Origin: an uncultured Phascolarctobacterium sp.
Lineage (GTDB): Bacteria; Bacillota; Negativicutes; Acidaminococcales; Acidaminococcaceae
Assembly: GCA_947630795.1 (NCBI GenBank)
Contig: CANRJC010000011.1
Coordinates: forward strand, 11,161-75,160
DNA length: 64,000 nt
Direction of reading: 5' to 3'
Each line of letters begins with the position of its first letter. The stretch's first letter is position 1. Both the position numbers and the translations under genes were made by a program. Below the pieces are notes generated by a model that searched no databases, was not told the origin of the DNA, and saw only the letters and a list, made by a program, of their open reading frames with translations. Of the stretch, positions 34,721 to 64,000 are shown piece by piece.

Positions 34721-34726
34721 AAAGGT

Positions 34727-34900: not shown

Positions 34901-35021
34901 AAGTATAAAAGTTCAGCACCCCAAGTTTTTCTTCTCATTTTGTCCCTAAAAATGTATAATAAAAGTACGGTCACATCAGGGGCAAGGTGAGTAAAATAAA
35001 AAAGCAAAAGGAGGAGACCCG

Positions 35022-35927: not shown

Positions 35928-35981
35928 AAATTTGCTCAAGGCTGTAATGAAGAAGGGACGCGCAGGCGTCCCTTCTTCAGT

Positions 35982-36216: not shown

Positions 36217-36220
36217 TTTT

Positions 36221-36979: not shown

Positions 36980-37299
36980 GAACGCACCTCCCTCATGGGT
37001 CATTGTACCACGCTTTTGCCGTAAGCAGGAAAAATTTTTCGGCGGAAACTGCGAAAGCGGGCGCTCAGGGCCCGACTCGAGCAGAATGTCTGCCCCCTAA
37101 CGCTTCGGGACAGGGTCAGTGCGGCTCCGGAAGAAAATTTTCGCGGCGGCGGCTCATCTTGCGGTATAATGAACGATAGAGGCATATTCTGAAACTTATT
37201 TTACATGGACTGCGAAGTCGTATTCGTATAAAAGCACGGACCGGATAGAAGTTTGGAGCTGACGATCAAATCCTGCGATGATAAAAAAGGAGTTAAACT

Positions 37300-37830: not shown

Positions 37831-38041
37831 ACATAAACCCGCCGGGCGCTACCAACATCCGACGGGTCTATTCATTTGAGGGATATGAATATCCTCCAAA
37901 TAAGCACCCTTAGTATAAAGGAAATTGTAGTTAACGTCAAGAAAAAATACAATATACAAGTACAATATATAGAGTTGCGTAGTATTAGAATGGAGCAAAT
38001 CGCATTAAATTTCTTACGGAATCCAGAAAGGTGCTGTCATC

Positions 38042-38920: not shown

Positions 38921-38988
38921 AGCGATGCTTTCTGCGGCTCATAAAAAGAAGCGGGCCGCCGACATTCGTTATTCGGGAGGTAAAGATC

Positions 38989-39708: not shown

Positions 39709-39872
39709 GAGAAAAGGCGGCGAGCGTCGCCCCCATGCTTCGGCTTTTACTGTTTTCGAAAGTCCCGACGGTGTGCGGCCTTCCCGGTCGTGCGCCGTTC
39801 TTTTTTTTGAGCAACGCTGATGAGAGGGAAGAGGGCCGTTTTCTGAAGATTTTTTCAGCAGACATTAACACT

Positions 39873-40020
39873 AATCTTGAAAAGGTGTAAAATTCGGCTT
39901 ATATTAATCTTGAAAAGGTGTAAAATTCGGCTTTCATTATTCTTGAAAACGTGTTAAAATCAAAATTGATCTTGGAAAAAGCACAAGATCCGTGCAAAGC
40001 AGATCTTGAAAGGTGGTAAC
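39873..40020 (+). repeat. five tandem ~32-bp units headed by ATCTTGAAAAGGTG (each unit is promoter-like)
   Basis: Units start at about 39874, 39907, 39940, 39969 and 40003. The first reads TTGAAA-17 nt-TATATT. The array runs into the RBS of the ATPase gene. Confidence 0.85.
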
Positions 40021-41373: not shown

Positions 41374-41427
41374 CCCGGCGGGAGCTGCGCTGTCTCCGTC
41401 TTCGCTTTTTGCAGATCATCGTCACTG

Positions 41428-41474
41428 ATCTTGAAAAGGTGTAAAATTCGGCTTATATTAATCTTGAAAAGGTG
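41428..41474 (+). repeat. 47-bp perfect direct repeat of 39874-39920
   Basis: ATCTTGAAAAGGTGTAAAATTCGGCTTATATTAATCTTGAAAAGGTG is identical on both sides of the ATPase gene. Confidence 0.9.
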
Positions 41475-41555
41475 CATCGCTCTTATACACCCTACTTTTA
41501 CGATCACACCGACGGTGCGCGGTATAAGCAACGGTGCAAAAAGGTTTTATCTGAA

Positions 41556-41903
41556 ATGAAAAAAAACGAGTATAACACTTTGGAAGAATTCACATCGCAA
41601 TATATAGGCGTATGGGGACCGTCCGACGGTCATTGGTTCGGGCTGGATTTTATATATAAAGGAGTTGAATACAGATTTCATACTTGGGCAATGTATAAAG
41701 ACGAGAGGAAAATTTTGCCTGACGGACGCAAGATAGTTTTTCGACTCTATAGGAAAAATGAAGAAGATATCTCGGGAAAAGACTACGTCCTATTGGGAGA
41801 ATTTGCGACTATGGAAGATGCATTGGATAGTACATGCATCGAAGGCACTCCTTTTCGTGAGATCATCATGGACGACGACACCGAGTTGCAGGGACAAGAT
41901 TGA
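41556..41903 (+). CDS. immunity-like small protein, copy 1
   Basis: 115 aa. From nt 41580 on it is identical to copy 2 (offset exactly 800 nt). The start is set at the ATG equivalent to copy 2. The in-frame upstream 28 codons look like the tail of a lost toxin-like gene. Confidence 0.65.
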   Translation: MKKNEYNTLEEFTSQYIGVWGPSDGHWFGLDFIYKGVEYRFHTWAMYKDERKILPDGRKIVFRLYRKNEEDISGKDYVLLGEFATMEDALDSTCIEGTPFREIIMDDDTELQGQD

Positions 41904-41969
41904 GCTAAGACAGGCAGAGTATTCACCTTTGACGGATTATCAAATTTTTCCTATAAAGGAGGTATCATA

Positions 41970-42359
41970 ATGGGATCACGAGGAGCTTTCGTAGATGTAA
42001 ACAGAGGAGACTTTACCTTTAAGGCTGGCGGTAAACATTACAAAACAATCGGTGTTTTGAGCGATGATCCTAATGTTAAGATCATCATTCAGGATGCGCC
42101 AAATGTAAAAGCGCCGGAGTATTCTCATACACCGGGCCGAATATATGCAGTAGTAAAAAACGGTATACTCAAACACTTGGCGTATTACGATGAAAATCAC
42201 AACCAAGCTGTAAATATCGATCTGGCGCACAGTCACGACGGAGTAAAACCGCACCGACATATTTATATGAATCATGACAAAGACTCACCTGGTGTTCCTC
42301 CTAATGCTGCAGAACTAGCTCTGATAGCTAAAATAAAAAAGGAGTTTCATTTGAAATGA
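41970..42359 (+). CDS. small His-rich protein, possible orphan toxin-domain cassette
   Basis: 129 aa with an AAGGAGG RBS. The stop overlaps the start of copy 2 (ATGA). Motifs HSHDGVKPHRHIY. No family recognised with confidence. Confidence 0.6.
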   Translation: MGSRGAFVDVNRGDFTFKAGGKHYKTIGVLSDDPNVKIIIQDAPNVKAPEYSHTPGRIYAVVKNGILKHLAYYDENHNQAVNIDLAHSHDGVKPHRHIYMNHDKDSPGVPPNAAELALIAKIKKEFHLK

Positions 42360-42703
42360 GAAAAAACGAGTATAAATCTTTGGAAGAATTCACATCGCAA
42401 TATATAGGCGTATGGGGACCGTCCGACGGTCATTGGTTCGGGCTGGATTTTATATATAAAGGAGTTGAATACAGATTTCATACTTGGGCAATGTATAAAG
42501 ACGAGAGGAAAATTTTGCCTGACGGACGCAAGATAGTTTTTCGACTCTATAGGAAAAATGAAGAAGATATCTCGGGAAAAGACTACGTCCTATTGGGAGA
42601 ATTTGCGACTATGGAAGATGCATTGGATAGTACATGCATCGAAGGCACTCCTTTTCGTGAGATCATCATGGACGACGACACCGAGTTGCAGGGACAAGAT
42701 TGA
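42356..42703 (+). CDS. immunity-like small protein, copy 2
   Basis: 115 aa, translationally coupled to the preceding gene. 324 nt are identical to copy 1. Confidence 0.7.
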   Translation: MRKNEYKSLEEFTSQYIGVWGPSDGHWFGLDFIYKGVEYRFHTWAMYKDERKILPDGRKIVFRLYRKNEEDISGKDYVLLGEFATMEDALDSTCIEGTPFREIIMDDDTELQGQD

Positions 42704-42904
42704 GCGGCGGAGCCGAAGGCCAAGGCGTATTTATCTTTGCCTTTTTGAAACGAGCGTCGATGATAAAAGGTGAGGCGCTTTCGCCTTCGTCTTTTGCAAA
42801 CGAGGGCTGCTCAAAAAATTTTCTCTTCATGCGCAAAACTGCATATATTTGTTTGACGGCGGGAAATGTTGGGTGTAAAATAGGAGCAGTAAGAGTTTGC
42901 TCCT

Positions 42905-42996
42905 TTAATCGGGTCCCGTGAGACTTCAAGGCAGAAACTTCCCAGTCGTTGCTCAGGCCTTCTGGTGTCCGCTCGGGACGCCGGAAGGCTTTTTTG
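42905..42996 (+). promoter_or_regulatory. pyr operon attenuator: PyrR-box-like element plus an intrinsic terminator
   Basis: GGTCCCGTGAGACTTCAAGG resembles the PyrR binding loop (..UCCAGAGAGGCU..). A strong hairpin GCCTTCTGGTGTCC-GCTC-GGGACGCCGGAAGGC plus TTTTTT (42956-42995) lies about 20 nt before the pyrB start. Confidence 0.5.
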
Positions 42997-43016
42997 GTAC
43001 AGGAGGTATAAAGTGC

Positions 43017-43976
43017 ATGGCTAAAAGCGACATATCTCTGGGCGGCAGAGATATACTGGACCTGGGCAGCCTCAGCAATGAGGAGATCGCTTTGATCTTG
43101 CAAACTGCCGCGGAAATGAAAAAGATCATGAAGAGGGACATCAAAAAAGTTCCTTCCCTGCGGGGAAAGTCCGTCATCAACCTCTTCTACGAACCCAGCA
43201 CCCGCACCCGCACCTCGTTTGAATTGGCGGGCAAATATTTGGGCGCCGACGTGGTGAACATCACCACCTCCTCTTCCAGCGTGGTGAAAGGCGAGTGCCT
43301 GCGTGACACCATCCTTACGGTGCAGTCGATGAACTGCGACGCCATCGTGATGCGCCACCCCATCGAAGGCGCAGCCGCATATGCCGCCAAGGTGGCCAAG
43401 CCCGTGGTGATCAACGCCGGCGACGGCGCTCACGCTCATCCCTCCCAAGGCCTGCTGGATCTTTACACCATCAAAGAAGCGGGGAAGAAGGTAGGCCCCG
43501 GGCTGAAGATGGCCATTTTGGGCGACATCCTCTACAGCCGCGTGGCCCGCACCAACATCGTGGCCTGGACTAGGCTGGGCGCCGAAGTGCACGTGGCCGG
43601 GCCCATGACCCTCATCCCTCACGATATAGAAGCTTTGGGCGTGAAAGTGCACAGCAGAGTGGAAGACGCCATCGAAGGAGCCGACGTCATCGACGTGCTG
43701 CGCATCCAGCTGGAGCGGCAGAAGAAGGGGCTCTTCCCCACCACCAGAGAGTATGCCCGGGTGTGGGGCCTGAACGAAAAACGTTTGGCCTTGGCCAAAA
43801 AAGACGTGCTGGTGCTGCACCCCGGCCCCATGAACAGAGGCTTGGAGATCTCGTGGGAAGTGGGCTACTGCGACAACGCCTACATCCGCGACCAGGTGCA
43901 GAACGGCGTGGCCGTGCGCATGGCTCTATTGTTCTTGACTTTGACGGGAGGGAAGCACTTTGAGAACCTTGATTAA
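43017..43976 (+). CDS. pyrB: aspartate carbamoyltransferase catalytic subunit
   Basis: The in-frame ATG after an AGGAGG RBS gives MAKSDISLGGRDILD. FYEPSTRTRTSFE, HPSQGLLD and HPGPMNRG motifs. Confidence 0.93.
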   Translation: MAKSDISLGGRDILDLGSLSNEEIALILQTAAEMKKIMKRDIKKVPSLRGKSVINLFYEPSTRTRTSFELAGKYLGADVVNITTSSSSVVKGECLRDTILTVQSMNCDAIVMRHPIEGAAAYAAKVAKPVVINAGDGAHAHPSQGLLDLYTIKEAGKKVGPGLKMAILGDILYSRVARTNIVAWTRLGAEVHVAGPMTLIPHDIEALGVKVHSRVEDAIEGADVIDVLRIQLERQKKGLFPTTREYARVWGLNEKRLALAKKDVLVLHPGPMNRGLEISWEVGYCDNAYIRDQVQNGVAVRMALLFLTLTGGKHFENLD

Positions 43977-45255
43977 AAACGGCAGGGTAGTGGACCCCGC
44001 TCAAAAGTTGGATGCGGTGCTGGACATCCTGATCGAAGACGGCCGCATCAAAAAACTGGCCCCCGCCATCATTGAAGCCGCCGACACCGTTTACGATGCC
44101 GCAGGCTTGGTGGTGTGCCCCGGTCTCGTCGACGTTCACACTCACTTGCGCGAACCGGGCTTAGAAGCTAAAGAAGACATCATCACAGGCACCATGGCCG
44201 CCGCCGCCGGCGGCGTCACCACCGTGGCCTGCATGCCCAACACCAAACCGGTCATTGACACCTCCATCATCGTCAGCGGCATCAAAGAAAGAGCCGCCAA
44301 AGAAGCTTATGCTCACGTGGAAGTGATCGGCGCCATCAGCAAGGGCGAAAAAGGCGAAGAACTGTCCGAGATGGTGGACATGGCCCAAAAGGGAGCCATG
44401 GCCTTTTCCGACGACGGCCACTACGTGAAGAGCAGCCGCCTCTTCCTCCTGGCCGCCCGCTACATCGCCCCCTTCGGCAAGGCCCTCATCTGCCACGACA
44501 TCGACCCCGAATTGGACGCGGAAGGCTATATGCACGAAGGTGCCGTTTCCGCCCGCATCGGCGTGCCCGGCGTGCCTGCCATCGCCGAAGATATCTGCGT
44601 GGCGAGAGACTGCATCATCTCCGAATATACGGGAGCTCACGTCCACATCGCTCACGTGGCTTCCAAAGGAGCCATCGACATCATCCGTCAGGCGAAGAAG
44701 AAGGGCATCAACGTCACCTGCGAAGTGGCGGTGCAGCACCTCACCCTCACCGACGAAGCCTGTGCCACTTATGACTCCGCCGCCAGAGTGAACCCGCCGC
44801 TCAGGAGTTTCGATCACGTGCAAGCTCTGCGGGAAGCGGTTTTAGACGGCACCGTGGACGCCATCGTCACCGATCACGCGCCCCACGCTCCCGAAGAAAA
44901 GGACGTGGAGTTCCGCTATGCCCCCAACGGTTTTTGCGGGCTGGAAACTTCACTGGGCGTGATGCTGACGGATCTTTATCACACCGGCATCTTCGACCTT
45001 GCCACCATCATCGATAAAATGAGCTGCAGCCCCGCCCGACTCTTCGGGCTGGATGCAGGCACTTTGCGGGAAGGGGCAGCGGCCGACCTTACCGTCATCG
45101 ATCTTGATAAAGAGTGGACAGTAGACCCCGACAAATTTTATACCCGGGGCAAGGCCACGCCCTATGCAGGCAAAGTTTGCCGGGGCAAAGCGGTGGCCAC
45201 CGTGCTTTCCGGCCGCTTCGTAATGAGAGATGGTGTAGTATGCACGAACAAGTAA
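43960..45255 (+). CDS. pyrC: dihydroorotase
   Basis: PGLVDVHTHLREPG, DDG and ITDHAPH-like (VTDHAPHAPEEK) motifs. 431 aa. TTG start overlapping the pyrB end. Confidence 0.92.
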   Translation: MRTLIKNGRVVDPAQKLDAVLDILIEDGRIKKLAPAIIEAADTVYDAAGLVVCPGLVDVHTHLREPGLEAKEDIITGTMAAAAGGVTTVACMPNTKPVIDTSIIVSGIKERAAKEAYAHVEVIGAISKGEKGEELSEMVDMAQKGAMAFSDDGHYVKSSRLFLLAARYIAPFGKALICHDIDPELDAEGYMHEGAVSARIGVPGVPAIAEDICVARDCIISEYTGAHVHIAHVASKGAIDIIRQAKKKGINVTCEVAVQHLTLTDEACATYDSAARVNPPLRSFDHVQALREAVLDGTVDAIVTDHAPHAPEEKDVEFRYAPNGFCGLETSLGVMLTDLYHTGIFDLATIIDKMSCSPARLFGLDAGTLREGAAADLTVIDLDKEWTVDPDKFYTRGKATPYAGKVCRGKAVATVLSGRFVMRDGVVCTNK

Positions 45256-52614: not shown

Positions 52615-52680
52615 AGAGCCCCAAGGGGCTCTTTTCGTTTGAGGGGGGAGAATCTATTTTAAACGTGTGCATTTCGAGAC
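52615..52680 (+). repeat. direct repeat DR-L, which includes the pyrE intrinsic terminator
   Basis: AGAGCCCCAAGGGGCTCTTTTCGTTTGAGGGGGGAGAATCTATTTTAAACGTGTGCATTTCGAGAC. The terminator hairpin is AGAGCCCC-AA-GGGGCTCT plus TTTT. It is repeated at 53823-53886 with a few mismatches. Confidence 0.9.
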
Positions 52681-52848
52681 GGGGAAAAAGGGGAAGCGCA
52701 ATTTGTTTTAGAGAGACGGTTATGCTATAATTGTTTTAAAGAGAGATAACGGATCAACGAAAAAGAAGCAAACAGCAGGGAAAATATGATCCCGAATACC
52801 GCAGTTACGATCGAGCGGCAAGTGCAGAGACGAAGGAGAAATGTGAAA

Positions 52849-53724
52849 ATGGCACGAAAGAAAAACAAACTTGAACTCGAATATGTCGAGCGGCTCATTG
52901 AACCGGTTTTTCTCGTGATTAAATGTCTCGGCGGCTCGGCAACTAATGCCGAGATCAGGGATGAAATAATCGAAACGCTCCGGCTTTCGGATGAAGTCGT
53001 AGACGAGCCCCATGTCGGAAAAGCAGCGCAGACGGAATTGGAATATCAATTGGCATGGGCGAGAACATATTTAAAAAATTACGGCGCTATAATTAACACA
53101 GAGCGAGGAGTGTGGGTTATTACTCCTGCTTTTGCAGACACCGTGGCCGTTGACGGGAAAGAGGTCATTAAGACTTTCTTGGAGAAAACCGGCAAATCAG
53201 GCGGTGAAAACGGTACGACACAGGATGACGATCCGTCGAACGACGGGGTAGATCCGCCGGAAGAACTGGAACCGTGGAGAATACAGATCGCAGAAATATT
53301 GCATAGCATGGATCCTTTTGCCTTCGAGCGTCTTTCACAGTTGCTGTTGAGAGAATGCGGTTTTTCGCAGGTAACGGTAACAAAAAAGACAGGCGACGGC
53401 GGGATCGACGGCAGGGGCAAACTTCTGATCAACGGGATATTCAGCTTCAATGTGGCCTTTCAGTGCAAACGGTTCAAGGGGAGCGTAGGCGCTGTGGAGA
53501 TAAGAAATTTCAGAGGATCGTTGACCACGGACAGGGAAAAAGGTATCTTTATCACCACCGGCTCTTTTACGAAAGCTGCCAGAGATGAAGCATCGATTGC
53601 CGGAAAGCAACAGATCGATCTGATCGACGGCGAGGAGTTCATAAATAAGCTGATAGAATATCGGATCGGCGTGAAGGAAAAGGCGGTCTTCGAGGTCGAT
53701 AAAGAGTTTTTCGATAAGGTCTAG
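52849..53724 (+). CDS. mrr: Mrr-type restriction endonuclease (Mrr_N winged helix + Mrr_cat)
   Basis: The internal ATG after AGGAGA gives MARKKNKLELEY. The C-terminal PD-(D/E)XK core reads FERLSQLLLRECGF ... GDGGIDGRG ... VAFQCKRF ... GIFITTGSFTKAA. Confidence 0.85.
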   Translation: MARKKNKLELEYVERLIEPVFLVIKCLGGSATNAEIRDEIIETLRLSDEVVDEPHVGKAAQTELEYQLAWARTYLKNYGAIINTERGVWVITPAFADTVAVDGKEVIKTFLEKTGKSGGENGTTQDDDPSNDGVDPPEELEPWRIQIAEILHSMDPFAFERLSQLLLRECGFSQVTVTKKTGDGGIDGRGKLLINGIFSFNVAFQCKRFKGSVGAVEIRNFRGSLTTDREKGIFITTGSFTKAARDEASIAGKQQIDLIDGEEFINKLIEYRIGVKEKAVFEVDKEFFDKV

Positions 53725-53822
53725 AGAGGTCGATGTTCGGCCCTTCTCTAAAAAGAAACTGCCGAAGGCGAAGTTTGTTTGCCTGATCGGTAAAAGTCAA
53801 TTCGAATATGTATATTAAAGAG

Positions 53823-53886
53823 AGGAGCCCCAAGGGGCTCTTTTCGTTTGGGGGGAATCTGTTTTAAACGTGTGCATTTGGAGGCG
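53823..53886 (+). repeat. direct repeat DR-R (copy of the pyrE terminator region)
   Basis: AGGAGCCCCAAGGGGCTCTTTTCGTTTGGGGGGAATCTGTTTTAAACGTGTGCATTTGGAGGC. Same orientation as DR-L, bracketing the ~1.1-kb mrr cassette. Confidence 0.9.
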
Positions 53887-53941
53887 GTTAAAAAGAAAGC
53901 TCATTAGTCGCCCGGCAGGCGACTTTTTTGTGCGACGGGTT

Positions 53942-54006
53942 TGGTATAATGAGGGGGAGAGGGGGAGAGCACGCTCTATTAAAAATTCTTGCGAAAATTT
54001 TCGCAA
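53942..54006 (+). promoter_or_regulatory. extended -10 promoter followed by an 18-bp perfect palindrome (operator-like)
   Basis: TGGTATAAT at 53942-53950. TTGCGAAAATTTTCGCAA at 53989-54006 is a perfect inverted repeat. It lies at the entry to the AT-rich island. Confidence 0.4.
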
Positions 54007-54447
54007 AGTGTTTTTAGAATGACGGATGTTGTCCAAGTGGTTTGATAAAATGAAAAAAGAGGATACTGTTGTAAGGCGTACTTGTTGATGTATAACGGAT
54101 TATAGTGAAAATGGTATTGAAAACGCCTGTGGATTCTGGTAATCTTTTTGATTATGTGCTATGATAAATCACGGAATTTATTGATATTTTTGTACTTTAC
54201 TATCAGAACCACGAGTAAGCTCATCAATAAAGAAAAGTTGCATTTTCTATTCGGCTGTGTATTTGCAAACACTTTAATTTCTACATTGATGCAGCAAGTG
54301 ACTCTGGAAAGAATTAAGCGTTATAGAATAGCTGTTTCTAATAATCTGTGAAGAATACAGTGCATTTGAGTTGGCGCTTCTGCCAAGTTATCAAAATAAG
54401 ACAATAGTTTACAAAAATGGGATATGAGATGATATGGAGGGTCAACT

Positions 54448-55968
54448 ATGGCGGGAGAAACTGTACAGGTAGGTAAATACACGCTGGAATCTCTTACAAC
54501 AGGTATGTACTCCGATCCCAAAATTGTCTATCGCGAATATATTCAAAACAGTGTAGATTCTCTAGAAAATGCTGTTGCCCTCGGTGTGATTGAAAAGTCA
54601 AGTATGCGTATAGACATCATCGTAAAAGCAGAGACCTCTTACATATGTATAAAAGACAACGGAATGGGTATTCCTTCTGCTGAGGCGCCTGAAACCTTGA
54701 TGAATGTCGGCAGTTCAAAAAAACGCAATTCCAACAATCGCGGTTTCCGCGGCATTGGTCGCCTTGGCGGGATGAGTTACTGCGATACCCTTGTGTTTAC
54801 GACATCTGCTGAGAAAGAGGCAGTTAAGACTGTTATCACCTTTGACTGTAAAAGACTTCGTAATTTACTTATTCCTGGTAAATACGAAGATATGAGTTTG
54901 TCTGAAGTATTGGAAGAAATTACGAAGGTTGATTTTCTTCCGGAAAAACCAGAGCTGCACTATTTGATCGTGGAAATGAAGGAGGTAAATGGTTTTTCAG
55001 ATTTACTCGACATTGATGCCGTAAAAAGTTATATATCGCAGGTAGCGCCACTCCCATACCAATTGCGTAGTTTTATTTATGCTCCTCAACTCAAAAAATA
55101 TCTGAGCAAGAATGGATATGTTGTTGAGGAGTTTCCAATTTTTCTTGGTGAGGATGAATTAAATCTGGCGCCAGTGTACAAACCGAACAAAAGTAGATTC
55201 AAATCCGACAGAGCAAAGCGAACAACCGATGAAATCACAAGCATGTCATACTTCGATGTAATAATCGATGGTGAATTATACGCACTGGGATGGTATGGTA
55301 ATTGTGGATGGCTCGGGACCTTGTCTGATAAGGAGTTGTCCGGCATCAGAGTAAGGAAAGGAAATATCCTTATCGGTGACAACAAAACGATGAATATAAT
55401 TTTTAAAGAAGCTCGTTTCAATGGGTGGACACAGGGCGAAATATTCATCGTTACTGATAAACTTGTTCCAAACGCTCGCAGAGACGACTTTGAACAGAAT
55501 GATGCTTACTATGATCTCATTAACGCTTTAAGTAATGGAGTGAGCTTAGAAATTTCCAGAGCTATTCGTGAAGCCTCGTTTACAAGAAATAATCCTAACG
55601 CGAAGGCATTGAGGGAGATTGAGAAGGTGATTGCAGAGGCTTCCAATGCTGTTTCGGAAGGATTTAATTCGAGCATTGATAAAGAAACACTCTTAAAATC
55701 TTTGACTGAAAGTGCTATTTCGTTATCCGAATTAAGAGTGAACGATGATTTTTCACAAAAGAAAAAAGAACTTGAAGAAAAGATCGAAGCGGCTATCAAA
55801 GAAGTTTCAGAAAGCAAAAACTTCAAAATTAACCATATTAATTCCAGTATAGATAAAAAGAGTAAGCAAGTTTTAAGAGTAGTTAGTAACATCCTTTCAA
55901 AGAAACTTGCCAAGTCCCTTGTTGATGAGATTATTGCAGAAATTGTTTCAGAATTGAACAGAAAGTAG
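54448..55968 (+). CDS. GHKL-superfamily ATPase (Hsp90/MORC-like, HATPase_c_3 type)
   Basis: Bergerat-fold motifs: N-box YREYIQNSVDSLENA, G1 IKDNGMGIP, G2 GFRGIGRLGGMSY. Coiled-coil-like Lys/Glu-rich C-terminus. GGAGGG RBS. Confidence 0.85.
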   Translation: MAGETVQVGKYTLESLTTGMYSDPKIVYREYIQNSVDSLENAVALGVIEKSSMRIDIIVKAETSYICIKDNGMGIPSAEAPETLMNVGSSKKRNSNNRGFRGIGRLGGMSYCDTLVFTTSAEKEAVKTVITFDCKRLRNLLIPGKYEDMSLSEVLEEITKVDFLPEKPELHYLIVEMKEVNGFSDLLDIDAVKSYISQVAPLPYQLRSFIYAPQLKKYLSKNGYVVEEFPIFLGEDELNLAPVYKPNKSRFKSDRAKRTTDEITSMSYFDVIIDGELYALGWYGNCGWLGTLSDKELSGIRVRKGNILIGDNKTMNIIFKEARFNGWTQGEIFIVTDKLVPNARRDDFEQNDAYYDLINALSNGVSLEISRAIREASFTRNNPNAKALREIEKVIAEASNAVSEGFNSSIDKETLLKSLTESAISLSELRVNDDFSQKKKELEEKIEAAIKEVSESKNFKINHINSSIDKKSKQVLRVVSNILSKKLAKSLVDEIIAEIVSELNRK

Positions 55969-55975
55969 GCTTACT

Positions 55976-57940
55976 ATGGAAGTACTACCATCTGAGTATC
56001 AGAATATTGAGCTCTCTAGATATGAGAAAATATTCGTGCGCTACGCCATTTCTAGCGATCAGTATGGCTTTCTTTTATTGAAAGTAAATCCCACTATGAT
56101 CGAAAATGAGAGTATGAATGTTGTGATTACTTCTAGAGGGGTTGTGTTTTTTAAGTTTTTGGAGAAAATCTCGGATGCAACCCTATTTGGAAGTGTAATG
56201 GAATCTTATAAATGCGTCTATTCTATGTCAGAAGAAATTATTGTCAAGAAACTTCTCAGCAATAAATCAATATCCGAGAATGGAACGGCTTTGAAGTTCC
56301 CAATCAATATCGTCCATGTTTTTCCGTGTCTCAAGCAAACAGATATTGAAAAGGTGAAGAATGATACTATTGCAGAATTTGTTGAAAAACATTGTTTGTT
56401 CGCAGAGAAGTTTTCTGAACTGCGTCAAGGATTTGCCGCCGTTTTAAATCACTTTTTGGATACTCCTATTATTACCATATCAGCTAATACAATGCAGATC
56501 TCCGATTTGAATGTAAATTCCATAATGCAGAGGATCGCTCCTGAATATGTTACTGTGCGAGTTGCTTGCATTGACTGTGCCAAAACAACACCTGGTGTAG
56601 ATAGTGAGCTTTTGGTTATAGATGAGAATGATGTTGTAGTTAAGGCTTTCCGCCTGGATAAGGAGCAAATCAACATTGTAAATAGAATCAGCAGGGATGA
56701 CCCAAATCAGCTGATACTGGCTTGTGCAGGATCCGGAAAAAGTGTATTGCTCATATCCAAATGTTTTAAGGCAGCGCAAATGAATCCTGACAAGAAGTTC
56801 CTAATCACATGTAAAAATGAAAATCTTCATTCACTTTATATTTGGTTTATTGACCGCGCCGGGCTTCATAATAAGAATGTTGAATGCATGACTTTTCATG
56901 CTCTTTGCAAGAAACTTCTTGAAAAGAACAAGTTTAGTGTAAAACCCAAAGATTTTGAAGGCTGGGTCAATTCGGCTATCGAAAAGCTAAATCAGGGTAA
57001 AATTACAGACAGATACTACGGTATCTTTATTGATGAGGTGCAGGCATTTGAACCCGAATGGTATAAGTTTTGTTTCAATCTCCTTGAAAACAAGGATACT
57101 AAAGATCATATATTTGTTATCTGTGGAGACAAAACGCAACGCTTGGACAAGCTCAAAAAGCATGGCCAAGCACCCTGGCAGGCTGGAGAAGGATATCCGA
57201 ATTACCGGGGTGGAAACAAAAACATACGCATAGAAAAGAATTACCGTAACTGTTATGAAATTAACGAATACATAAATCGGTATGTTTCTAACGTAAGACG
57301 ATATCTCTATGAAATACAAGATGATTATAAGATTGATCCCGATATGTTTTTGCGGGGGCAGGCTATCTTTCATGGGGAAGGAGTGCGATACATTCAGCTG
57401 ACTACAAAAAAAGTGGAATGTGAGATTGATAATATTATTCATTCTATCAAAGAAATACATGATATGAAAGAAATTCCATATGATGAAATTGCTGTGATAA
57501 TGTACCAAGGAAAGTTTCGAAAGAAAATTTCTGGCTGGTTGGACAAAAACTATTTTTTGCAGCAGAATTTAGAAAAAAGAATGGATGCTGAAAATATTCC
57601 GTACTGCCGCCTTTACTCTACTGAAGGGGCCTGGCAAGATCATTTTGGAGATACAGGCGGTGTTCGTATCATTAAATTTCAAACATCGCTAGGTTTGGAT
57701 TTTCGGGCAGCCATTATTTGCGGTCTTGTTACCTTGGGTGAGTATGAGCATATTAAGAATCCTGAATGGGAGTCTTTAAAAACTGATAAAGAAAAATATG
57801 AAAATACGATTACCGATATTCAACGTGCCATTCAAAACCTTTATGTGGCTTGCACAAGAGCTAAAGAGCTCCTATATATTATCGCTCCGGAAAGCGAAGA
57901 AGAATCCATCTTTATGAAGCTGCTCAAAGACTCAATTTAG
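55976..57940 (+). CDS. UvrD/Rep-family (SF1) helicase-like protein with a ~230-aa N-terminal domain of unknown, possibly degenerate NERD-like, type
   Basis: Walker A ILACAGSGKSVLL, motif II GIFIDEVQAF, motif III ICGDKTQRL, motif VI LYVACTRAKELLYI. 7-nt gap after the preceding gene. Confidence 0.85.
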   Translation: MEVLPSEYQNIELSRYEKIFVRYAISSDQYGFLLLKVNPTMIENESMNVVITSRGVVFFKFLEKISDATLFGSVMESYKCVYSMSEEIIVKKLLSNKSISENGTALKFPINIVHVFPCLKQTDIEKVKNDTIAEFVEKHCLFAEKFSELRQGFAAVLNHFLDTPIITISANTMQISDLNVNSIMQRIAPEYVTVRVACIDCAKTTPGVDSELLVIDENDVVVKAFRLDKEQINIVNRISRDDPNQLILACAGSGKSVLLISKCFKAAQMNPDKKFLITCKNENLHSLYIWFIDRAGLHNKNVECMTFHALCKKLLEKNKFSVKPKDFEGWVNSAIEKLNQGKITDRYYGIFIDEVQAFEPEWYKFCFNLLENKDTKDHIFVICGDKTQRLDKLKKHGQAPWQAGEGYPNYRGGNKNIRIEKNYRNCYEINEYINRYVSNVRRYLYEIQDDYKIDPDMFLRGQAIFHGEGVRYIQLTTKKVECEIDNIIHSIKEIHDMKEIPYDEIAVIMYQGKFRKKISGWLDKNYFLQQNLEKRMDAENIPYCRLYSTEGAWQDHFGDTGGVRIIKFQTSLGLDFRAAIICGLVTLGEYEHIKNPEWESLKTDKEKYENTITDIQRAIQNLYVACTRAKELLYIIAPESEEESIFMKLLKDSI

Positions 57941-57956
57941 TGAAAGGTAGGAAATT

Positions 57957-59270
57957 ATGAATCTGATTGAAAATAAAACGAAATTTAAGCATTCCGGTAG
58001 GCCAGGCTGGGGTGTCGGAACTTTCATAAAATCCGAGAATGACTATGTAACGATCAACTTTGAAAACGTAGGGCCTAAAAAATTCAGGAAAACAAGTATT
58101 AACGAAGAACTGAAGATCATAAAAGGAACCGATAATAGTACCGCAAATAAAAGTTTACAAAGTAGGCCAATAGACGGCTTGACGAACGCACAAAGCAGTT
58201 CGTTGATTCAATATGATGGGGAAGAAGGCAATGGTTTTGCCGGCAAAAATGTTATTGAAGCGTTTGAAGGTAACGACACAGTTTTATTTAATGAGACATA
58301 CATAATCATTGGAAAACATACGAAAGCGTTTAAATTACATGCTTTGTATGACTTGATAATTATGGGAGATGTGACTGTTCAAGAGTGCAAAGTAAACGGC
58401 TCATTAACAGTTCTGGGTGATGCTCGTATTAATAATCTGGACTGTCAAAATGGGTTTATTTGTAAAGGCGATTTGTATTCAGATAATATTTATGTTGGTG
58501 GGGATATGATCGTTGATTCTATCAACTGTGATGAGTTGCTCTGTGACGGAAATGTAGTTGTCAAAAAATCAGTAAACATTAACCGTAATGCAAAAATAGT
58601 AGAGACTATGATAGCATGCGAAGGAATAACGGGTGAAGGCAAGTTCTCCGCTCTCAATGCCATAGCAAACGAATATTTCGAATTTGATGGTGACTGCGAA
58701 GGAAAAATTGTAGAACTGGAAACGGATACTACAATCAGTAATACAGTTCCCGTTAAAGCTGTTTCTTTAGAGCCAATTGAAGAAATTATCAAATTAGCAA
58801 ACCAAAAACTCATCGAGGAGTACAAGAGATATCCTGAAATGGACGAAGAACAAATAATGGCACATTTAAGACATTTGAGCTTAATCGAGAGTGACGAATT
58901 AAAAACACTTCCTGTTGTGGAACAGATGTTTTCTTGTCTGGTAGAGATGTCTTATAAAAATAAAATTGGGACTATTGAAGAGTATTTGACAGTTCTTGAA
59001 GCAGAGAAAGTATTGCCAGCTGAAATATATTCTTATGAAACAATCGAGCACATAGGTAATAGCTACCTTCCTAAAGCGCAGAGTGAGGTTGAGAAATTAA
59101 GTTTTGAACCTACATCTATTCAGCAGTTCGCTAAGGTTCTTTTGCTGGCAGTAAAGCTTAAAGAAAGAGTATCCGATAATTGGGGAATCATTATGGAAAA
59201 ACTTTTCGAATCTATTGGGTTAAAATACGCAACTGTAAGTAAGATGATTGAAAGAAATAAGCCTATTTAG
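57957..59270 (+). CDS. hypothetical protein: N-terminal Tudor/SH3-like segment + bactofilin-like beta-helix repeats + helical C-terminus
   Basis: FKHSGRPGWGVGTFIKSENDYVTINFENVGPKKF resembles the HxxFGxGxV C-terminal domain of PcrA/UvrD (DUF3553-like). Residues ~150-230 show hexapeptide-like repeats (GDVTVQECKVNGSLTVLGDARINNLDCQNGFICKGDLYSDNIYVGGDMIVDS...). 16-nt gap from the helicase gene. Confidence 0.75.
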   Translation: MNLIENKTKFKHSGRPGWGVGTFIKSENDYVTINFENVGPKKFRKTSINEELKIIKGTDNSTANKSLQSRPIDGLTNAQSSSLIQYDGEEGNGFAGKNVIEAFEGNDTVLFNETYIIIGKHTKAFKLHALYDLIIMGDVTVQECKVNGSLTVLGDARINNLDCQNGFICKGDLYSDNIYVGGDMIVDSINCDELLCDGNVVVKKSVNINRNAKIVETMIACEGITGEGKFSALNAIANEYFEFDGDCEGKIVELETDTTISNTVPVKAVSLEPIEEIIKLANQKLIEEYKRYPEMDEEQIMAHLRHLSLIESDELKTLPVVEQMFSCLVEMSYKNKIGTIEEYLTVLEAEKVLPAEIYSYETIEHIGNSYLPKAQSEVEKLSFEPTSIQQFAKVLLLAVKLKERVSDNWGIIMEKLFESIGLKYATVSKMIERNKPI

Positions 59271-59365
59271 GCACAGAATAACAAATTTATAAGCTAAGAT
59301 CAGCATGGACATTATATGAGGAACAGCAATTAATCTAATTATTGCAAGAGCATCGGAGAAGGAAA

Positions 59366-62300
59366 ATGACCGTAAGCGAGGTAAATAGAATGCCTAACAT
59401 AAAAAGTATTGACCGTGAACTACTTGCTAATGCAATTTTGCAGGGTTTTAAAGGTAAAATAACAGGTGAAGGTACCGATGTAGTAATTGGGGAAAACCCA
59501 GAAAATAGATATTTCGTCGGAAAGCTCTTGCCCGTTAGTGATTCACAAAAATCCTCTTGGGGATCTGATTTTTTTATAGAATCTATAGGAACTGATTTTT
59601 ACATTGCTATAGAAGAAATAAAGACAGCACAGCTTACCATTTATCCAAAAGGGGACTTTTATTATCGTGCGTATCCTACTCTTGAACAGCAGCGTACTGC
59701 TATGCTCAAAAGAGCCAATGAACTGTTTGAAACAAGTTTTTCAAGCTTTGATGAGATTATTAAACGATATGAAGAGGATTATTCAGTATTATCTAAACTC
59801 AAAGAAAAACTCATTCCAATTTATAAGAAAGTGCAAATCAACCGTAGCGACTTTACGCTAACATTTAATTTGCATGAACTTCTGCGAGATAATCCACAGT
59901 TCGGTTTTGCAGGCGCAAATCACGCACAGAACATGCAATTTGCAGAATTTCTTGACAACCTCCAAAATTCGATTTGTGAGGATGAATACTGCTATACCAC
60001 GGAACTATTTGAAAAAACTACTGTAAAGGACTTGTTGACAGAACAAAATTATAAAAATTTTCTTAAAAGGAATGCCAAACAAGGCCCTCCTATACGTCAG
60101 AATTGGAATGTATATGTTGATTTGACCTTAAAACTCATTAAGGACAGAGACGAATATTTGATATCTGTTGCCCTTGTTAATGGATCTCAGGTTCAATCAA
60201 ACAGCGTTACTCATAAATCGAATAAAAAATCCAATGATAAGCCTACAATCGAGACACTTTTTAACTCCGGGATGGAAATCAAGCTCGATGGGGCTAATTT
60301 CTCTACTATTGACCTGGATTTCTTTGCTGAAGATTACAAATACAACAGCAGCCAGAAAGCTGTAGGAAATAATTGTTCCGTCATTTATGATGCGGACAAC
60401 AACTCGATTATAACAAACCATCTGCCTGTATTTATTCAAAAACGGTTGCTCACAAATGATGAGTTTGCTGTCTCGTTCCAATCATTGATCGATGACCCTG
60501 TTACAATTCTCAGGGACATCCATAATAATATGCTCGCTGAACACAAAAATTGGGAAAATATTCTTGAAGAAAAGAGACCAGTACTTTCGCCTGTTGGGAT
60601 TAAAAATATGCAGGAAGAAATTAACGAGTTTGCACGAGAAATCCGTCGCTTTGAGTTTGGTATTGAGATAATCAACGATTACCCAATCATTATGAAAAGC
60701 TTCAAAAATATGAACCAGACGTTCTTGAATACCTCCAAAAAATATAGTACTTGGAGATTGTTTCAGATTGTTTATATCGTTTCGCTCATACCAGATATAG
60801 CGGCATGTGATGGGACTGCGATTCTTGATGTTCACAAAAAACAGAGCACGCTTAACGAGGTTTCTCTTCTATACTTCCCTACAGGTGGCGGTAAGACTGA
60901 AGCTTTCCTTGGGGTTTTGGTTTTTAATCTGTTCTTTGATAGATACCGCGGAAAGGAATGCGGCGTAACATCAATCCTCAGATATCCATTAAGGCTTCTT
61001 TCTGTTCAGCAGGTACAGCGTTTGGCTAATGTTCTTGCTCAAGCTGAACTGATCAGGAGAAATGACAAAGCAATATTCAGAACTGAAGAATTTTCTCTTG
61101 GCTATTTTGTTGGTGATGCGAACACGCCTAACAAAATAGAAAAGAAAAATGTACTAAAGTATAGGAGAGCTTCACAAGAAGTCCTAGATGAGGAGCGAAT
61201 TATTGATGTTTGCCCTTTTTGTGGCAAAAAGACAGTTCATTTGAAATTCGATGAAAACTCTTATCGTCTGATTCATTATTGTGACAATACGGAATGCAGG
61301 TCAAATGGCATTTTACCGATTTTTATGGTTGACCACGAAATCTACCGTTATTTACCTTCTGCCATTATAAGTACAGTTGATAAGCTTGCCATTTTGGGGA
61401 ATAACCCGAATTTTAGAAATATTTTTTCTGGAGCTACCCACAGATGCCCAAAGCATGGTTTTACGAACACTACAAAATGTATGGTAGATAGGGAGTTTTG
61501 CGATGTTGATATTGCCGATTTCGAAGAAGTTGAAATGTATGACCCAGCACCTACTTTGTTCATACAAGATGAGTTGCACTTGATTCGTGAAAGTCTGGGA
61601 ACGTACGCTTCTCATTATGAATCTTTTATTGATTACTATGTGAAAAATGTATCACCGTCACATCGACCTATCAAAATCATCGGTGCTACTGCAACAATTT
61701 CCTCTTACAAGACGCAGATTTCTCAGTTGTATAACAAGGATCCCATTCGCTTCCCCTGTGCTTCTCCAGATTTGAAACGAAATTTCTATTCATATATTGG
61801 GAATGATGATATTCAACGTTTAATTATAGGATACGCACCTTTCGGTAAAGCTATTATCAATTCTGTAGTCTACTCACTTAAATATATGAGAGAAGTTGTA
61901 TATGACTATGTGAAATGTCCTGAAAAGGTCTTGAATATCCCCGGTATAGGTATTGATTCTATTGATGAGGCATTGGAAATACTGAAAGACTACTGGATCT
62001 TCCTTGAATATAACAATATCAAGCGAGACGGGAATAATGTTGAAGGTGCTCTCGAAACACCTATTAATGTTGAGCTCCGCAAAGATGGAGTAACTCCTTT
62101 CAAAACAAGAAAAATGACCGGTGACGAAACCTTTCAGGACGTGCGTGAGGTTTTATCGAAGGTAGAAAACAATGAGGATGTGTTTAACGGTGTAAACCTT
62201 ATTGTTGCAACATCGATGATTTCTCATGGGGTCGATGCTGATCGATTTAACATAATGTTCTTCTATGGTATGCCTGGTAATACGGCTGAGTACATTCAGG

Positions 62301-62833
62301 CATACAGCAGAACCGGAAGAAAATATACAAGCATTGTTATCGATATAATGAGACCTTCCAGAGAAACAGATCAAAGCTATCTAAAAAACTTCGTAAACTT
62401 TCATGAGTTTAAAGATATTCTGGTCGAATCTGTTCCCATCAACCGTTGGGCAACGAAAGCCATAGATTGGACGTTGCCGGGTATCTTCACAGGTCTACTG
62501 CTGATGAAATATGACCCCCAATTACAATCAAGTTGCGGTTCGCAATTCTTTATGAACAACATTAAAAAGGCAATTTCTAATGGCTACTTGGATAAGGCAA
62601 CTGTTATCGAAGAATTAAAACTGGCTTATGGATGCACTGTTGCAGGACAAGTAAATGAGCTTGGAAACCAATACAAAGAAAAGATTGAAAGTTTCGTTGA
62701 GGATGTTTTTGCAAGAATCTCTGATAAGAACTGGGAAAAGGAAAATATCTTTTCTGGATTTGAACTTATGGGTTATCACATCATGAATAGTATGAGAGAT
62801 ACCGATACTCAATTGATTATCGAACTGGAATGA
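59366..62833 (+). CDS. large SF2 DExH helicase with zinc-ribbon inserts (DrmA-like architecture)
   Basis: About 500 aa of unassigned N-terminal region, then Walker A YFPTGGGKTEAF, motif II FIQDELHLI, motif V/VI IVATSMISHGVDADR ... QAYSRTGR. Cys clusters CPFCGKK...YCDNTEC and HRCPKHG...KC lie inside the RecA1 region. The start could be ATG 59366 or ATG 59390 (GAGGT RBS). Confidence 0.85.
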   Translation: MTVSEVNRMPNIKSIDRELLANAILQGFKGKITGEGTDVVIGENPENRYFVGKLLPVSDSQKSSWGSDFFIESIGTDFYIAIEEIKTAQLTIYPKGDFYYRAYPTLEQQRTAMLKRANELFETSFSSFDEIIKRYEEDYSVLSKLKEKLIPIYKKVQINRSDFTLTFNLHELLRDNPQFGFAGANHAQNMQFAEFLDNLQNSICEDEYCYTTELFEKTTVKDLLTEQNYKNFLKRNAKQGPPIRQNWNVYVDLTLKLIKDRDEYLISVALVNGSQVQSNSVTHKSNKKSNDKPTIETLFNSGMEIKLDGANFSTIDLDFFAEDYKYNSSQKAVGNNCSVIYDADNNSIITNHLPVFIQKRLLTNDEFAVSFQSLIDDPVTILRDIHNNMLAEHKNWENILEEKRPVLSPVGIKNMQEEINEFAREIRRFEFGIEIINDYPIIMKSFKNMNQTFLNTSKKYSTWRLFQIVYIVSLIPDIAACDGTAILDVHKKQSTLNEVSLLYFPTGGGKTEAFLGVLVFNLFFDRYRGKECGVTSILRYPLRLLSVQQVQRLANVLAQAELIRRNDKAIFRTEEFSLGYFVGDANTPNKIEKKNVLKYRRASQEVLDEERIIDVCPFCGKKTVHLKFDENSYRLIHYCDNTECRSNGILPIFMVDHEIYRYLPSAIISTVDKLAILGNNPNFRNIFSGATHRCPKHGFTNTTKCMVDREFCDVDIADFEEVEMYDPAPTLFIQDELHLIRESLGTYASHYESFIDYYVKNVSPSHRPIKIIGATATISSYKTQISQLYNKDPIRFPCASPDLKRNFYSYIGNDDIQRLIIGYAPFGKAIINSVVYSLKYMREVVYDYVKCPEKVLNIPGIGIDSIDEALEILKDYWIFLEYNNIKRDGNNVEGALETPINVELRKDGVTPFKTRKMTGDETFQDVREVLSKVENNEDVFNGVNLIVATSMISHGVDADRFNIMFFYGMPGNTAEYIQAYSRTGRKYTSIVIDIMRPSRETDQSYLKNFVNFHEFKDILVESVPINRWATKAIDWTLPGIFTGLLLMKYDPQLQSSCGSQFFMNNIKKAISNGYLDKATVIEELKLAYGCTVAGQVNELGNQYKEKIESFVEDVFARISDKNWEKENIFSGFELMGYHIMNSMRDTDTQLIIELE

Positions 62834-62847: not shown

Positions 62848-64000
62848 ATGAGTTCTAAACGGCAGATGAAAAGAGGAAAGAATCAGTCTTTGTACAAATA
62901 TCTTCCCGAAACTTGGATAGATTTTTCTGTTCGAGGCAAGGAAAGGAAACAATATATTGCTAAAGTTGTAAGATGGAACAGCGAAAAGCTAGACGAAATA
63001 AATGTCAAAAGACTTATTAGAACCGTTAATGAGTTAGTTCGCTCGTTTGAAAACCAATGCCAAACACATGGCGCTATTAAGCCAACTGTTGGTTTTGGGA
63101 CTGAACTTACTAAGGATAATTGTTATGTTCTTACCCCTAAAGCTTCTGACGAAGAAAGAGGTATTGTCGCTCAGATTAGCCCTTTGACTTTCTATTGTAA
63201 GAGCTGCCATAAGGTTTATCAGTTCAGTAGCGAGGAAGAATATCAAAAGCATAAATATTGTACTAATCCGGAATGCCATCAATCCGAGCTTGCTCAGTTC
63301 CGGCAGATATATTTCTGCAAGTGTGGATATGCAACAGACAGGCATAATCCACGTTGTCCAGAGCACGGATATCAATATGTAAAATGGGACGGAAACTATA
63401 ATTTTATTTGTTACAGATGTAACAAGACTATTCCCATGCAAGTGAAGTGCCCGATTTGTGGTGAAATATTGAGGCCTAAAGTTGCCCTTGATCCAGCTCA
63501 GTTTTTTGTGTTTAGTTTAAGTCTTATTGACTTAATCGACGAAAAATTGGAAAATTTTATTTCTGAAACCTCTTATGGGACATATATAACATTCGCATAC
63601 TGGCTTGAATTAATAAATAAAGAGGAGCTTGATGAAATTATAAGGAATGGAATTGTTTCTGATCCGGATATATATCAAAAAGAATATGACAGAATGTATA
63701 AGGAAATGCTTCCTCTTGGGGCGACTGTCGCAGCGCAGGCGGCAAAAATAGCTGCCGACAAAATATGCGGAAATAGATTTAATGACATCGTTAATGACCT
63801 AAGAACCAAGGTTTTTTCTACAAAAAGCGATATGTCCAGCATGGCTGAACGAATTCTGGAGTATGAAATGGTAACCAGGCTAGATGATGTATCTGATTTG
63901 GATTCTGCTATAAATGTCGCTCGTCTTTTAAATACAAACGCAAATCCGAAACAATACGCACAGATTGCAAAGCGCTTTGGCATTAATAGCGCCAGAGTTT
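62848..64000 (+). CDS. Cys-rich (multi zinc-ribbon) protein, 3' end outside the window; DUF1998/DrmB-like by position and cysteine pattern
   Basis: Not in the ORF track because it has no stop in the window. My own translation from ATG 62848 (RBS GAGGGTGG) stays open to nt 64000: MSSKRQMKRGKNQSLYKYLPETWIDF ... FYCKSCHKVY ... YCTNPECHQ ... FCKCGYATDRHNPRCPEHGY ... FICYRCNK ... KCPICGE ... It starts 14 nt after the helicase stop. Confidence 0.75.
   Translation, partial: MSSKRQMKRGKNQSLYKYLPETWIDFSVRGKERKQYIAKVVRWNSEKLDEINVKRLIRTVNELVRSFENQCQTHGAIKPTVGFGTELTKDNCYVLTPKASDEERGIVAQISPLTFYCKSCHKVYQFSSEEEYQKHKYCTNPECHQSELAQFRQIYFCKCGYATDRHNPRCPEHGYQYVKWDGNYNFICYRCNKTIPMQVKCPICGEILRPKVALDPAQFFVFSLSLIDLIDEKLENFISETSYGTYITFAYWLELINKEELDEIIRNGIVSDPDIYQKEYDRMYKEMLPLGATVAAQAAKIAADKICGNRFNDIVNDLRTKVFSTKSDMSSMAERILEYEMVTRLDDVSDLDSAINVARLLNTNANPKQYAQIAKRFGINSARV

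Follow-up and report, generated by a model that had tools for sequence, protein, structure and literature searches.

GHKL ATPase, UvrD-like helicase and beta-helix genes of an uncultured Phascolarctobacterium sp. as the probable front of a methylase-less operon related to class-2 DISARM

Introduction

DISARM is among the less understood restriction-like defences, and both its effector step and the way in which it avoids self-attack are still debated. Its class-2 form, DrmE-DrmA-DrmB-DrmC-DrmMII, was reportedly named by Ofir et al. 2018. Here we describe a DISARM-like locus at the end of a 64,000-nucleotide stretch of DNA, hereafter the window, from an uncultured Phascolarctobacterium sp. (NCBI GenBank assembly GCA_947630795.1, contig CANRJC010000011.1, positions 11,161 to 75,160 of the forward strand; all positions below are counted from the first letter of the window). 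The locus opens with genes for a GHKL ATPase (A), a superfamily 1 (SF1) UvrD-like helicase (B) and a beta-helix protein (C), which are followed by DrmA (D) and DrmB (E). The window ends inside gene E; in relatives, genes for a nuclease-helicase (F), a radical SAM protein (G) and a second GHKL ATPase (H) come next. A, B and C are probably the front of one eight-gene, methylase-less operon derived from class-2 DISARM.

Class-2 DISARM is next to this locus on a gradient of DrmA identity. The two have in common that DrmA and DrmB are adjacent and in the same order, that one large gene lies 5' of DrmA, and that a nuclease gene lies 3' of DrmB. They differ in that the locus has no DrmE (B compared with DrmE in hhalign gave 1.4%) and that the PLD nuclease DrmC, found only where DrmA identity is ≤36%, is replaced by F, a NERD domain joined to an SF1 helicase. 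No DNA methyltransferase is present within or directly beside the operon (loci L088-L100, L109, L122). Beyond the class-2 set, the operon has genes for the two GHKL ATPases, the radical SAM enzyme and the beta-helix protein. A tRNA U5-methyltransferase-like gene was seen 3 kb upstream of the operon in L091 and is not conserved in other loci.

Several other described systems resemble parts of the locus. MORC/paraMORC operons also combine a GHKL ATPase with intact ATP-binding motifs, a superfamily 2 (SF2) helicase and a restriction-fold nuclease (PMC2292703), and Iyer, Abhiman and Aravind 2008 proposed that such ATPases loop or clamp DNA and so aid the helicase and nuclease (PMC2292703). Their paper lists no radical SAM partners and refers to UvrD only through the analogy with MutL (PMC2292703). 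MutL with UvrD is likewise a GHKL ATPase paired with an SF1 UvrD-type helicase, which is a likeness of possible working and not of membership: A is no MutL orthologue and matched no MutL family in Pfam or NCBIfam, MutS and MutH are missing, and the locus lies in a mobile defence island. ARMADA type II (Bell et al. 2025, PMC12458937) is also a DISARM-related operon built on a YprA/DrmA-like helicase, but it has a BrxHII-like helicase, a PglX-like methylase and no DrmB (PMC12458937), and its counterpart of helicases F and B carries a RelE-like N-terminal domain rather than NERD (PMC12458937). In the text of PMC12458937 the terms GHKL, MORC, HATPase and Tudor are all absent; 'radical SAM' was not searched there.

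B and F match the SF1 models of the NERD-UvrD helicases (PADLOC C3a187, RTasNERD-Hel) and of Gabija GajB. F has the complete NERD and helicase architecture of the former, whereas B has the helicase part only and lacks the catalytic residues. Gabija differs in its partner, as no locus contained a GajA-like (OLD-family nuclease) gene; a reverse transcriptase partner was not found either. The C-terminal Tudor domain (DUF3553) of UvrD/PcrA, which binds UvrB or RNA polymerase, shares its fold with residues ~9-54 of C at 29% identity (PMC6511836), but in C the module is N-terminal on a separate beta-helix protein instead of on the helicase, and only part of the C family has it.

PADLOC recognised DrmA, DrmB and, generically, both SF1 helicases, and has no model for A, C, G or H. 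Full-text searches, in which subscription journals were not covered, found no paper joining DISARM/DrmA or DUF1998 with GHKL, and none joining radical SAM with GHKL, MORC, DISARM, HerA or DGQHR. The eight-gene operon with two GHKL ATPases and a radical SAM enzyme is apparently an undescribed variant of DISARM.

Results

Gene order in related loci

The survey comprised 80 genome loci anchored on the GHKL family and 80 metagenome loci anchored on DrmA. Genes were labelled by iterated profile searches, and the loci (numbered with the prefix L) were sorted by the identity of their DrmA to that of the window. The order conserved in relatives was HTH_26 (sometimes with WYL), A, B, C, DrmA, DrmB, F, G, H, and all eight genes from A to H were present in this order in L088, L090-L094, L096, L097, L100, L109 and L122. 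The window's own element was recovered in four ENA contigs (L174-L177) with the same Mrr gene upstream, and F and G follow E there. The five-gene unit of an earlier note on this DNA was thus too short, since F, G and H lie beyond the end of the window in relatives.

The gene F product (~554 aa) is a NERD domain fused to an SF1 helicase (Pfam NERD and AAA_19; PADLOC RTasNERD-Hel, 2e-67), and it keeps the intact PD-(D/E)xK motif of NERD (E-D-ExK; SE.DFLV...EVKGG). G (~685 aa) is a radical SAM protein (Pfam E 2.5e-7), in whose family 78 of 79 members contain CxxxCxxC. H (~490-500 aa) is a second GHKL ATPase, named GHKL2, which belongs to A's own family (HATPase_c_3). Two other readings of this 3' region were rejected. 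The ~680-aa gene beside the second GHKL gene is not a diverged B, as it had no BLASTP similarity to B and encodes the radical SAM protein. The order C-DrmA-DrmB-F-radical SAM-GHKL is not a second gene order; it is the 3' half of the same operon, truncated by the 10-kb limit on the flanks.

Where DrmA identity was at least 45%, A, B and C were present in 16/16 distinct loci with enough upstream flank; of the 15 distinct loci whose downstream flank measured at least 6 kb, 14 contained G and H at that end. L099 was the exception: its G and H genes are on the opposite strand and precede A instead of following F (L099:1351-6632). This arrangement suggests that the G-H pair can move as a block within the system. 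Six loci with DrmA at 34-39% identity (L104-L108, L113) had the order B-DrmA-DrmB-F, with F missing only in L104, at a contig end; A, C, G and H were absent from all six. In L106-L108, F was followed by a D12 (Dam-type) methylase and a 769-aa DndB/DpdB-like DGQHR fusion protein, both identified with Pfam and PADLOC on L106 only (L106:6627-18678). At a DrmA identity of ≤36% the loci were canonical class-2 DISARM, that is DrmE-DrmA-DrmB-DrmC(PLD)-C5 methylase.

Compared by position with canonical DISARM, B stands in the place of DrmE, F in that of the PLD nuclease DrmC, and G with H in that of the methyltransferase, a place that the intermediate variant fills with the Dam-type methylase and the DGQHR protein. 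B is part of the DrmAB/F core, since it accompanies DrmA-DrmB-F in six loci without A or C. The gene content also shows that A, C, G and H were acquired as a set, exactly in the loci that lack the methylase and DGQHR genes.

All recovered copies of GHKL1-type A (the type found in the window) and of C came from DrmA loci, and G and H accompanied them whenever the flanks were long enough to tell. The earlier note had named unlinked occurrence of A, B and C in other genomes as evidence against their forming a unit. Such occurrence was found in part: B is found in loci that lack A and C, and members of A's wider family are found where B and C are missing. GHKL1-type A and C themselves kept to DrmA loci.

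In the genome scan, relatives with the A-B pair belonged to Clostridium, Christensenellaceae, Dorea and Oscillospiraceae metagenome-assembled genomes. On two JGI contigs (L001:1-8341, L002:1-8341) the operon has phage-like neighbours, which encode an S24 repressor, Sipho_Gp157, RusA, primase and DNA polymerase. One IMG/VR contig (L178) carries a copy of the operon, with a B that is 35% identical to that of the window. C had no match in sequenced phages and plasmids, and a scan of viral contigs with B returned a single contig; the system is not mainly phage-borne.

The A-B-C segment

Genes A, B and C are separated by gaps of 7 nt (A-B) and 16 nt (B-C). Shine-Dalgarno-like sequences precede A (GGAGG), C (AAGGTAGG) and D (GAGG). 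The order A-B-C is kept in many metagenome contigs, at identities to the window of 78-85% for A, 56-79% for B and 54-72% for C, and this conservation indicates that they are real genes and not chance open reading frames (ORFs). They are contiguous and probably co-transcribed. The earlier note had the coordinates and gaps of the three genes exactly right, and its domain assignments for them agree with Pfam, motif conservation and, for B and C, AlphaFold2 (AF2) models. Its picture of tight coupling in a defence context also stands. Its description of A-B-C as a sub-module is only partly supported: the trio is no separate module in evolution or function, in view of the six loci in which B accompanies DrmAB-F without A and C.

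The GHKL ATPase A and its paralogue

Gene A (54448..55968, + strand) encodes a GHKL (Bergerat-fold) ATPase of 506 aa, named GHKL1 (Pfam HATPase_c_3, E 1.3e-11). In an alignment of 49 diverse homologues, the Bergerat motifs (E30, N34, D70/G72/G74, GFRGIGRL) were invariant or nearly so, and conserved Arg/Asn/Gly motifs were found at residues 301-346. The family numbers 1987 clusters at 50% identity (E ≤ 1e-3). The exact window protein A was absent from the contig index, and the exact protein B was present there.

Among solved structures, the N-terminal domains of Hsp90/HtpG were nearest to A by sequence, with a match to the first ~90 residues only, in which A differs from the MORC/paraMORC ATPases. 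'MORC-like', the term used in the earlier note, is therefore a loose label for A, and the hallmark neighbour of the family is a radical SAM enzyme. B lay directly 3' of A in every GHKL1 locus observed. In a neighbour-joining tree, which is a rough distance tree without support values, the GHKL1 clade, with B as neighbour, was sister to the GHKL2 clade, which is linked to radical SAM genes in the same DISARM-like operons. A is thus a paralogue of H, and most simply read as a duplicate of it that exchanged its radical SAM neighbour for the helicase B.

GHKL and radical SAM genes outside the operon

In 69 of the 80 genome loci, which come from many phyla, a GHKL gene and a radical SAM gene were immediate neighbours with the same orientation. 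In these pairs a GHKL protein of ~500 aa stands beside a radical SAM protein of ~480-720 aa (loci L012-L087; examples are L063:9992-13451, L039:8286-11494 and L179:6277-9500). The partners around the pair vary: a HerA-like ATPase with a 388-aa protein, an SNF2 helicase with ParB-N-like proteins, DGQHR/DndB-like proteins, a PIN_8 protein, or DrmAB. RefSeq labels relatives of G 'hypothetical protein' and relatives of H 'ATP-binding protein'. No description of the GHKL and radical SAM pairing was found in the searchable literature, and the accessible MORC/paraMORC papers do not mention it.

The SF1 helicase B

Gene B (55976..57940, + strand) encodes an SF1 UvrD-like helicase of 654 aa (Pfam UvrD-helicase 3.7e-7, UvrD_C 1.6e-6). 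Its helicase motifs are invariant among homologues (Walker A AGSGKS, Walker B DEVQ, GDKTQ, VACTRA). The AF2 model of B matched UvrD, Rep and PcrA in Foldseek at E 1e-6 to 1e-8, and also the C-terminal domains of HelD (6vsx and 3dmn; target-normalised TM-score 0.71-0.75); the search with the whole model was dominated by the helicase core. The top NCBIfam match was DNA helicase IV (3e-10). The PADLOC 'NERD+UvrD' model C3a187 matched B at E 4e-22 in the helicase part only, and matches to GajB were partial. B itself has no Tudor tail.

The N-terminal domain of B (~190 aa) has an alpha-beta-beta-beta-alpha-beta topology, with a pLDDT of 78-95 over residues 11-190 of the AF2 model. When full-length B and F were compared in hhalign, the alignment ran through both N-termini with a probability of 99.5%; with the isolated N-terminal domains the probability was 1.6%, which is not significant. 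A profile search of the PDB with the B N-terminus gave spurious matches only (histone H2B helices). The catalytic motif of NERD, SE.DFLV...EVKGG in F, reads ES.N(V/L)...(F/L)(F/L)(K/R) in B, so that the catalytic Asp of F is replaced by Asn/Met and the Glu by Phe/Leu, and the Lys/Arg is often kept. The N-terminus of B may, on the model and the alignment, be a NERD-like domain that lacks the acidic catalytic residues. The NERD-like strand pattern which the earlier note had seen here is reasonable, but homology is unproven; its remark that catalytic residues are missing was borne out by the alignment with the motif of F. The same note found no clear nuclease site, which is true of the A-B-C trio, but the system's F keeps an intact NERD motif.

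We also considered whether B or C could be a diverged DrmE. This was rejected, as comparison with the DrmE alignment in hhalign gave 1.4% for B and 0.3% for C, and neither protein matched the PADLOC models of DrmE or DrmD.

The beta-helix protein C

Gene C (57957..59270, + strand) encodes an adaptor-like protein of 437 aa (Pfam DUF3553 at residues 11-43, E 4.7e-5). In the AF2 model, an N-terminal DUF3553/Tudor-like barrel (~9-54) is followed by a beta-helix (~99-253) and a helical C-terminal domain (~274-433). The beta-helix was modelled confidently, with block pLDDT values mostly of 83-96. The N-terminus matched the C-terminal Tudor domain of UvrD (7egt_B; Foldseek probability 1.0, target-normalised TM-score 0.74, 29% identity), and DUF3553 has been described as Tudor-like and closest to the RNA polymerase-interacting domain of PcrA/UvrD (PMC6511836). 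For the beta-helix, Foldseek returned weak generic matches only (LpxD, GlmU; E > 0.1), and a search of PDB sequences with the C profile returned nothing meaningful. A bactofilin identity of the beta-helix was rejected, as the Pfam Bactofilin (DUF583) match had an E of 0.04 and 14.6 bits against a cut-off of 27.9.

C was the gene immediately 5' of DrmA in every locus that holds it. Its conserved core consists of the beta-helix and the helical domain, and the Tudor and HhH modules vary among relatives. The Tudor module at the N-terminus is confined to the closest clade and is absent from many orthologues (L096, L099-L102, L122). In L011, L017, L097 and L098 a Tudor/SH3-like segment (e.g. VSHNRYGKGIVVK) is inserted inside the helical domain; the Tudor-like module, N-terminal in the window's clade and at another position elsewhere, is the same module relocated within the family. 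The HhH-like C-terminal tail of ~105 aa is also optional. It is kept in L001 and L005 (in L005 at 6010-6336), forms a separate 76-aa ORF in L091-L093 (L091:11396-11626), and is lost in the window. With its optional Tudor and HhH modules, C looks like a scaffold with interchangeable docking modules.

DrmA, DrmB and the spacer before them

Gene D (59390..62833, + strand) encodes DrmA, the SF2 helicase of DISARM (PADLOC PDLC02576, E 3.6e-174), and covers positions 41-1182 of the 1235 in that profile. The motifs PTGGGKT and DELH were invariant in the homologue alignment; D also has a Cys-rich insert. Gene E (62848..64000, + strand) encodes DrmB (DUF1998-type), of which the N-terminal 384 aa lie in the window. 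Over these residues the fragment shares 80% identity with the N-terminus of the L088 protein, and its orthologue in L001 matches the PADLOC DrmB model PDLC02582 at E 2.2e-58. In one contig of the window's own element (L174:6942-10371), the DrmA gene is broken into two ORFs, of 616 and 530 aa, which is a frameshift or an assembly error (coverage ~3x).

The spacer between C and D occupies 59271..59389 on the + strand. Alignment with relatives places the start of D at ATG 59390 (MPNIKS..., with GAGG upstream), which makes the spacer 119 nt; the 95-nt gap of the earlier note is correct if D starts at ATG 59366. In relatives the corresponding gap is only ~15-30 nt. Alignment of the DNA with L005 indicated that the ~270 nt encoding the HhH-like tail of C in relatives was lost from the spacer of the window, or replaced. 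The terminator scan found no terminator-like site in the spacer, and promoter-like sites were no commoner there than in shuffled sequences.

Genomic setting

The operon lies in a low-GC island (~37% GC from ~53.9 kb to the end of the window, compared with ~58% upstream), and the drop from ~58% to ~37% falls in the 52-56 kb interval. The island is directly 3' of a chromosomal pyrimidine-biosynthesis operon (pyrB, pyrC, carA, carB, pyrK, pyrF, pyrE). Between the pyr operon and gene A lies an Mrr-type restriction gene (52786-53724), followed by a terminator-like hairpin on the + strand (53906..53924) found in the terminator scan. This hairpin is the upstream limit of the island, and the promoter of the operon should therefore lie at ~53930-54440. 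The Mrr gene is flanked by a direct repeat of ~76 nt (52616-52690 and 53825-53895; 87-97% identical), which contains the hairpin GAGCCCCAAGGGGCTC. The repeat looks like a terminator region that was duplicated when an Mrr cassette was inserted after pyrE.

An HTH_26 gene precedes A in the relatives in which that stretch is visible (L001-L007, L088, L089, L091-L093), and some of them add a WYL gene. Neither an HTH_26 nor a WYL regulator gene was found in a search of the region upstream of A in the window (53725-54447), and this 720-nt region had no similarity to the upstream DNA of the relatives. The copy in the window may be regulated differently or be unregulated.

Further upstream, on the other side of the pyr operon, a second stretch of lower GC (48-52%) extends over 34000-44000. 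It contains a gene for an AAA_14/DUF4143 ATPase (40006-41373) and ORFs without a Pfam match (35022-35927, 37876-38889), and may be another inserted element.

Discussion

In the model that we propose for the operon, DrmAB would be a motor that senses single-stranded DNA (ssDNA), as in published DISARM; structure work is said to have found that the DrmAB complex is activated by ssDNA. F would supply the nuclease effector, and G and H would take over from methylation by marking or inspecting DNA. A could act as an ATP-driven dimeric clamp that brings the helicase B to target DNA or activates it there, much like MutL and UvrD, a pair in which the GHKL partner is needed to load or activate the helicase (PMC2292703). 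The action of A and B would then produce ssDNA for DrmAB and F. C would be the scaffold that links the parts to DrmA, and its optional modules, a Tudor domain like the RNA polymerase- or UvrB-binding domain of UvrD/PcrA and the HhH tail, could tether it to the polymerase or to DNA.

Several points weigh against this reading. The roles assigned to the operon proteins come entirely from sequence comparison and models; contacts between A and B, A and H, G and H, and C and DrmA are suggested by the adjacency of their genes only, and the replacement of the methylase by G and H by their position in the operon only. The tree behind the paralogy of A and H is a rough one, as noted above. A NERD origin of the B N-terminus is statistically unsupported on the domain alone, given the 1.6% in hhalign and the spurious PDB matches. 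Many C orthologues lack the Tudor and HhH modules, which cannot therefore be indispensable for the core mechanism. Finally, in the window C is without its HhH tail and no HTH_26/WYL regulators precede A, so that this copy could be differently regulated or partly decayed.

Three other explanations of the A-B-C trio were weighed. In one of them, A-B-C is an autonomous three-gene defence system which merely stands beside a DISARM-like system in a defence island. The very tight spacing of A, B and C and the larger gap before D speak for this, as does the repeated pairing of GHKL ATPases with helicases in restriction-like loci (PMC2292703). The wide C-D gap, however, is a deletion scar, given the ~15-30 nt of the relatives. 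DrmA-DrmB-F was present in every recovered locus with a GHKL1-type A or C that was long enough to judge, and B occurs beside DrmA without A and C (L104-L108, L113). The trio also contains no nuclease or other effector domain, and neither A nor C is matched by a PADLOC model. We regard autonomy of the trio as very improbable. A role in sensing transcription is improbable too: the Tudor domain of C would dock on RNA polymerase, and B, as a helicase IV/HelD-like enzyme, would work at R-loops or at transcription complexes that have stalled or belong to a phage, and pass the ssDNA exposed there to DrmAB. The likeness of the C N-terminus to the Tudor domain of UvrD points this way, with DUF3553 linked to the RNA polymerase-interacting domain of PcrA/UvrD (PMC6511836), as do the helicase IV and HelD matches of B and the absence of a Tudor tail from B itself. 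But all of this similarity of B to HelD and helicase IV falls within the generic SF1 core, and the Tudor module, N-terminal only in the closest clade and relocated or absent in other C orthologues, has a patchy distribution that marks it as accessory.

The remaining explanation makes A, C, G and H a layer of autoimmunity control or licensing, which would hold DrmAB, B and F inactive on host DNA until a phage cue arrives, possibly with A and H as a heterodimer. It draws on the fact that these four genes come in as a group at exactly the point of the series at which the methylase and DGQHR genes drop out, and on the paralogy of A and H within a class of dimerising ATPases; GHKL paralogue pairs commonly heterodimerise, MutL-alpha being an example. 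Against it, A adjoins B and H adjoins G in almost every locus, a pattern that suits two separate pairs more than a single heterodimer, and the G and H genes of L099 run divergently from A. We consider a licensing layer unlikely. An eight-gene operon derived from class-2 DISARM, with A, B and C at its front, is the reading that we retain.

A wider proposal, which we put forward tentatively and with some doubt, concerns the GHKL and radical SAM pair as such. The two genes may form a module, undescribed and widely transferred, that uses radical chemistry to mark or interrogate DNA and replaces methyltransferases in restriction-like immunity. In this operon the module would be G and H, and the duplicated A would couple it to B through the scaffold C, which would allow self and non-self to be discriminated without a methylase. 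If the radical SAM/GHKL pair modifies DNA, this would be a new kind of epigenetic self-mark.

For the DISARM family, the locus represents a lineage that keeps the DrmAB core and swaps its accessories: DrmE for an SF1 helicase, the PLD nuclease for a NERD nuclease-helicase, and the methylase for a radical SAM enzyme with a GHKL ATPase, to which a second GHKL ATPase and a beta-helix adaptor are added. With the DrmAB core kept and all accessories exchanged, it offers a natural experiment on what DrmAB requires of its partners. Copies are abundant in metagenome assemblies, and the system probably shapes phage-host dynamics in those communities.

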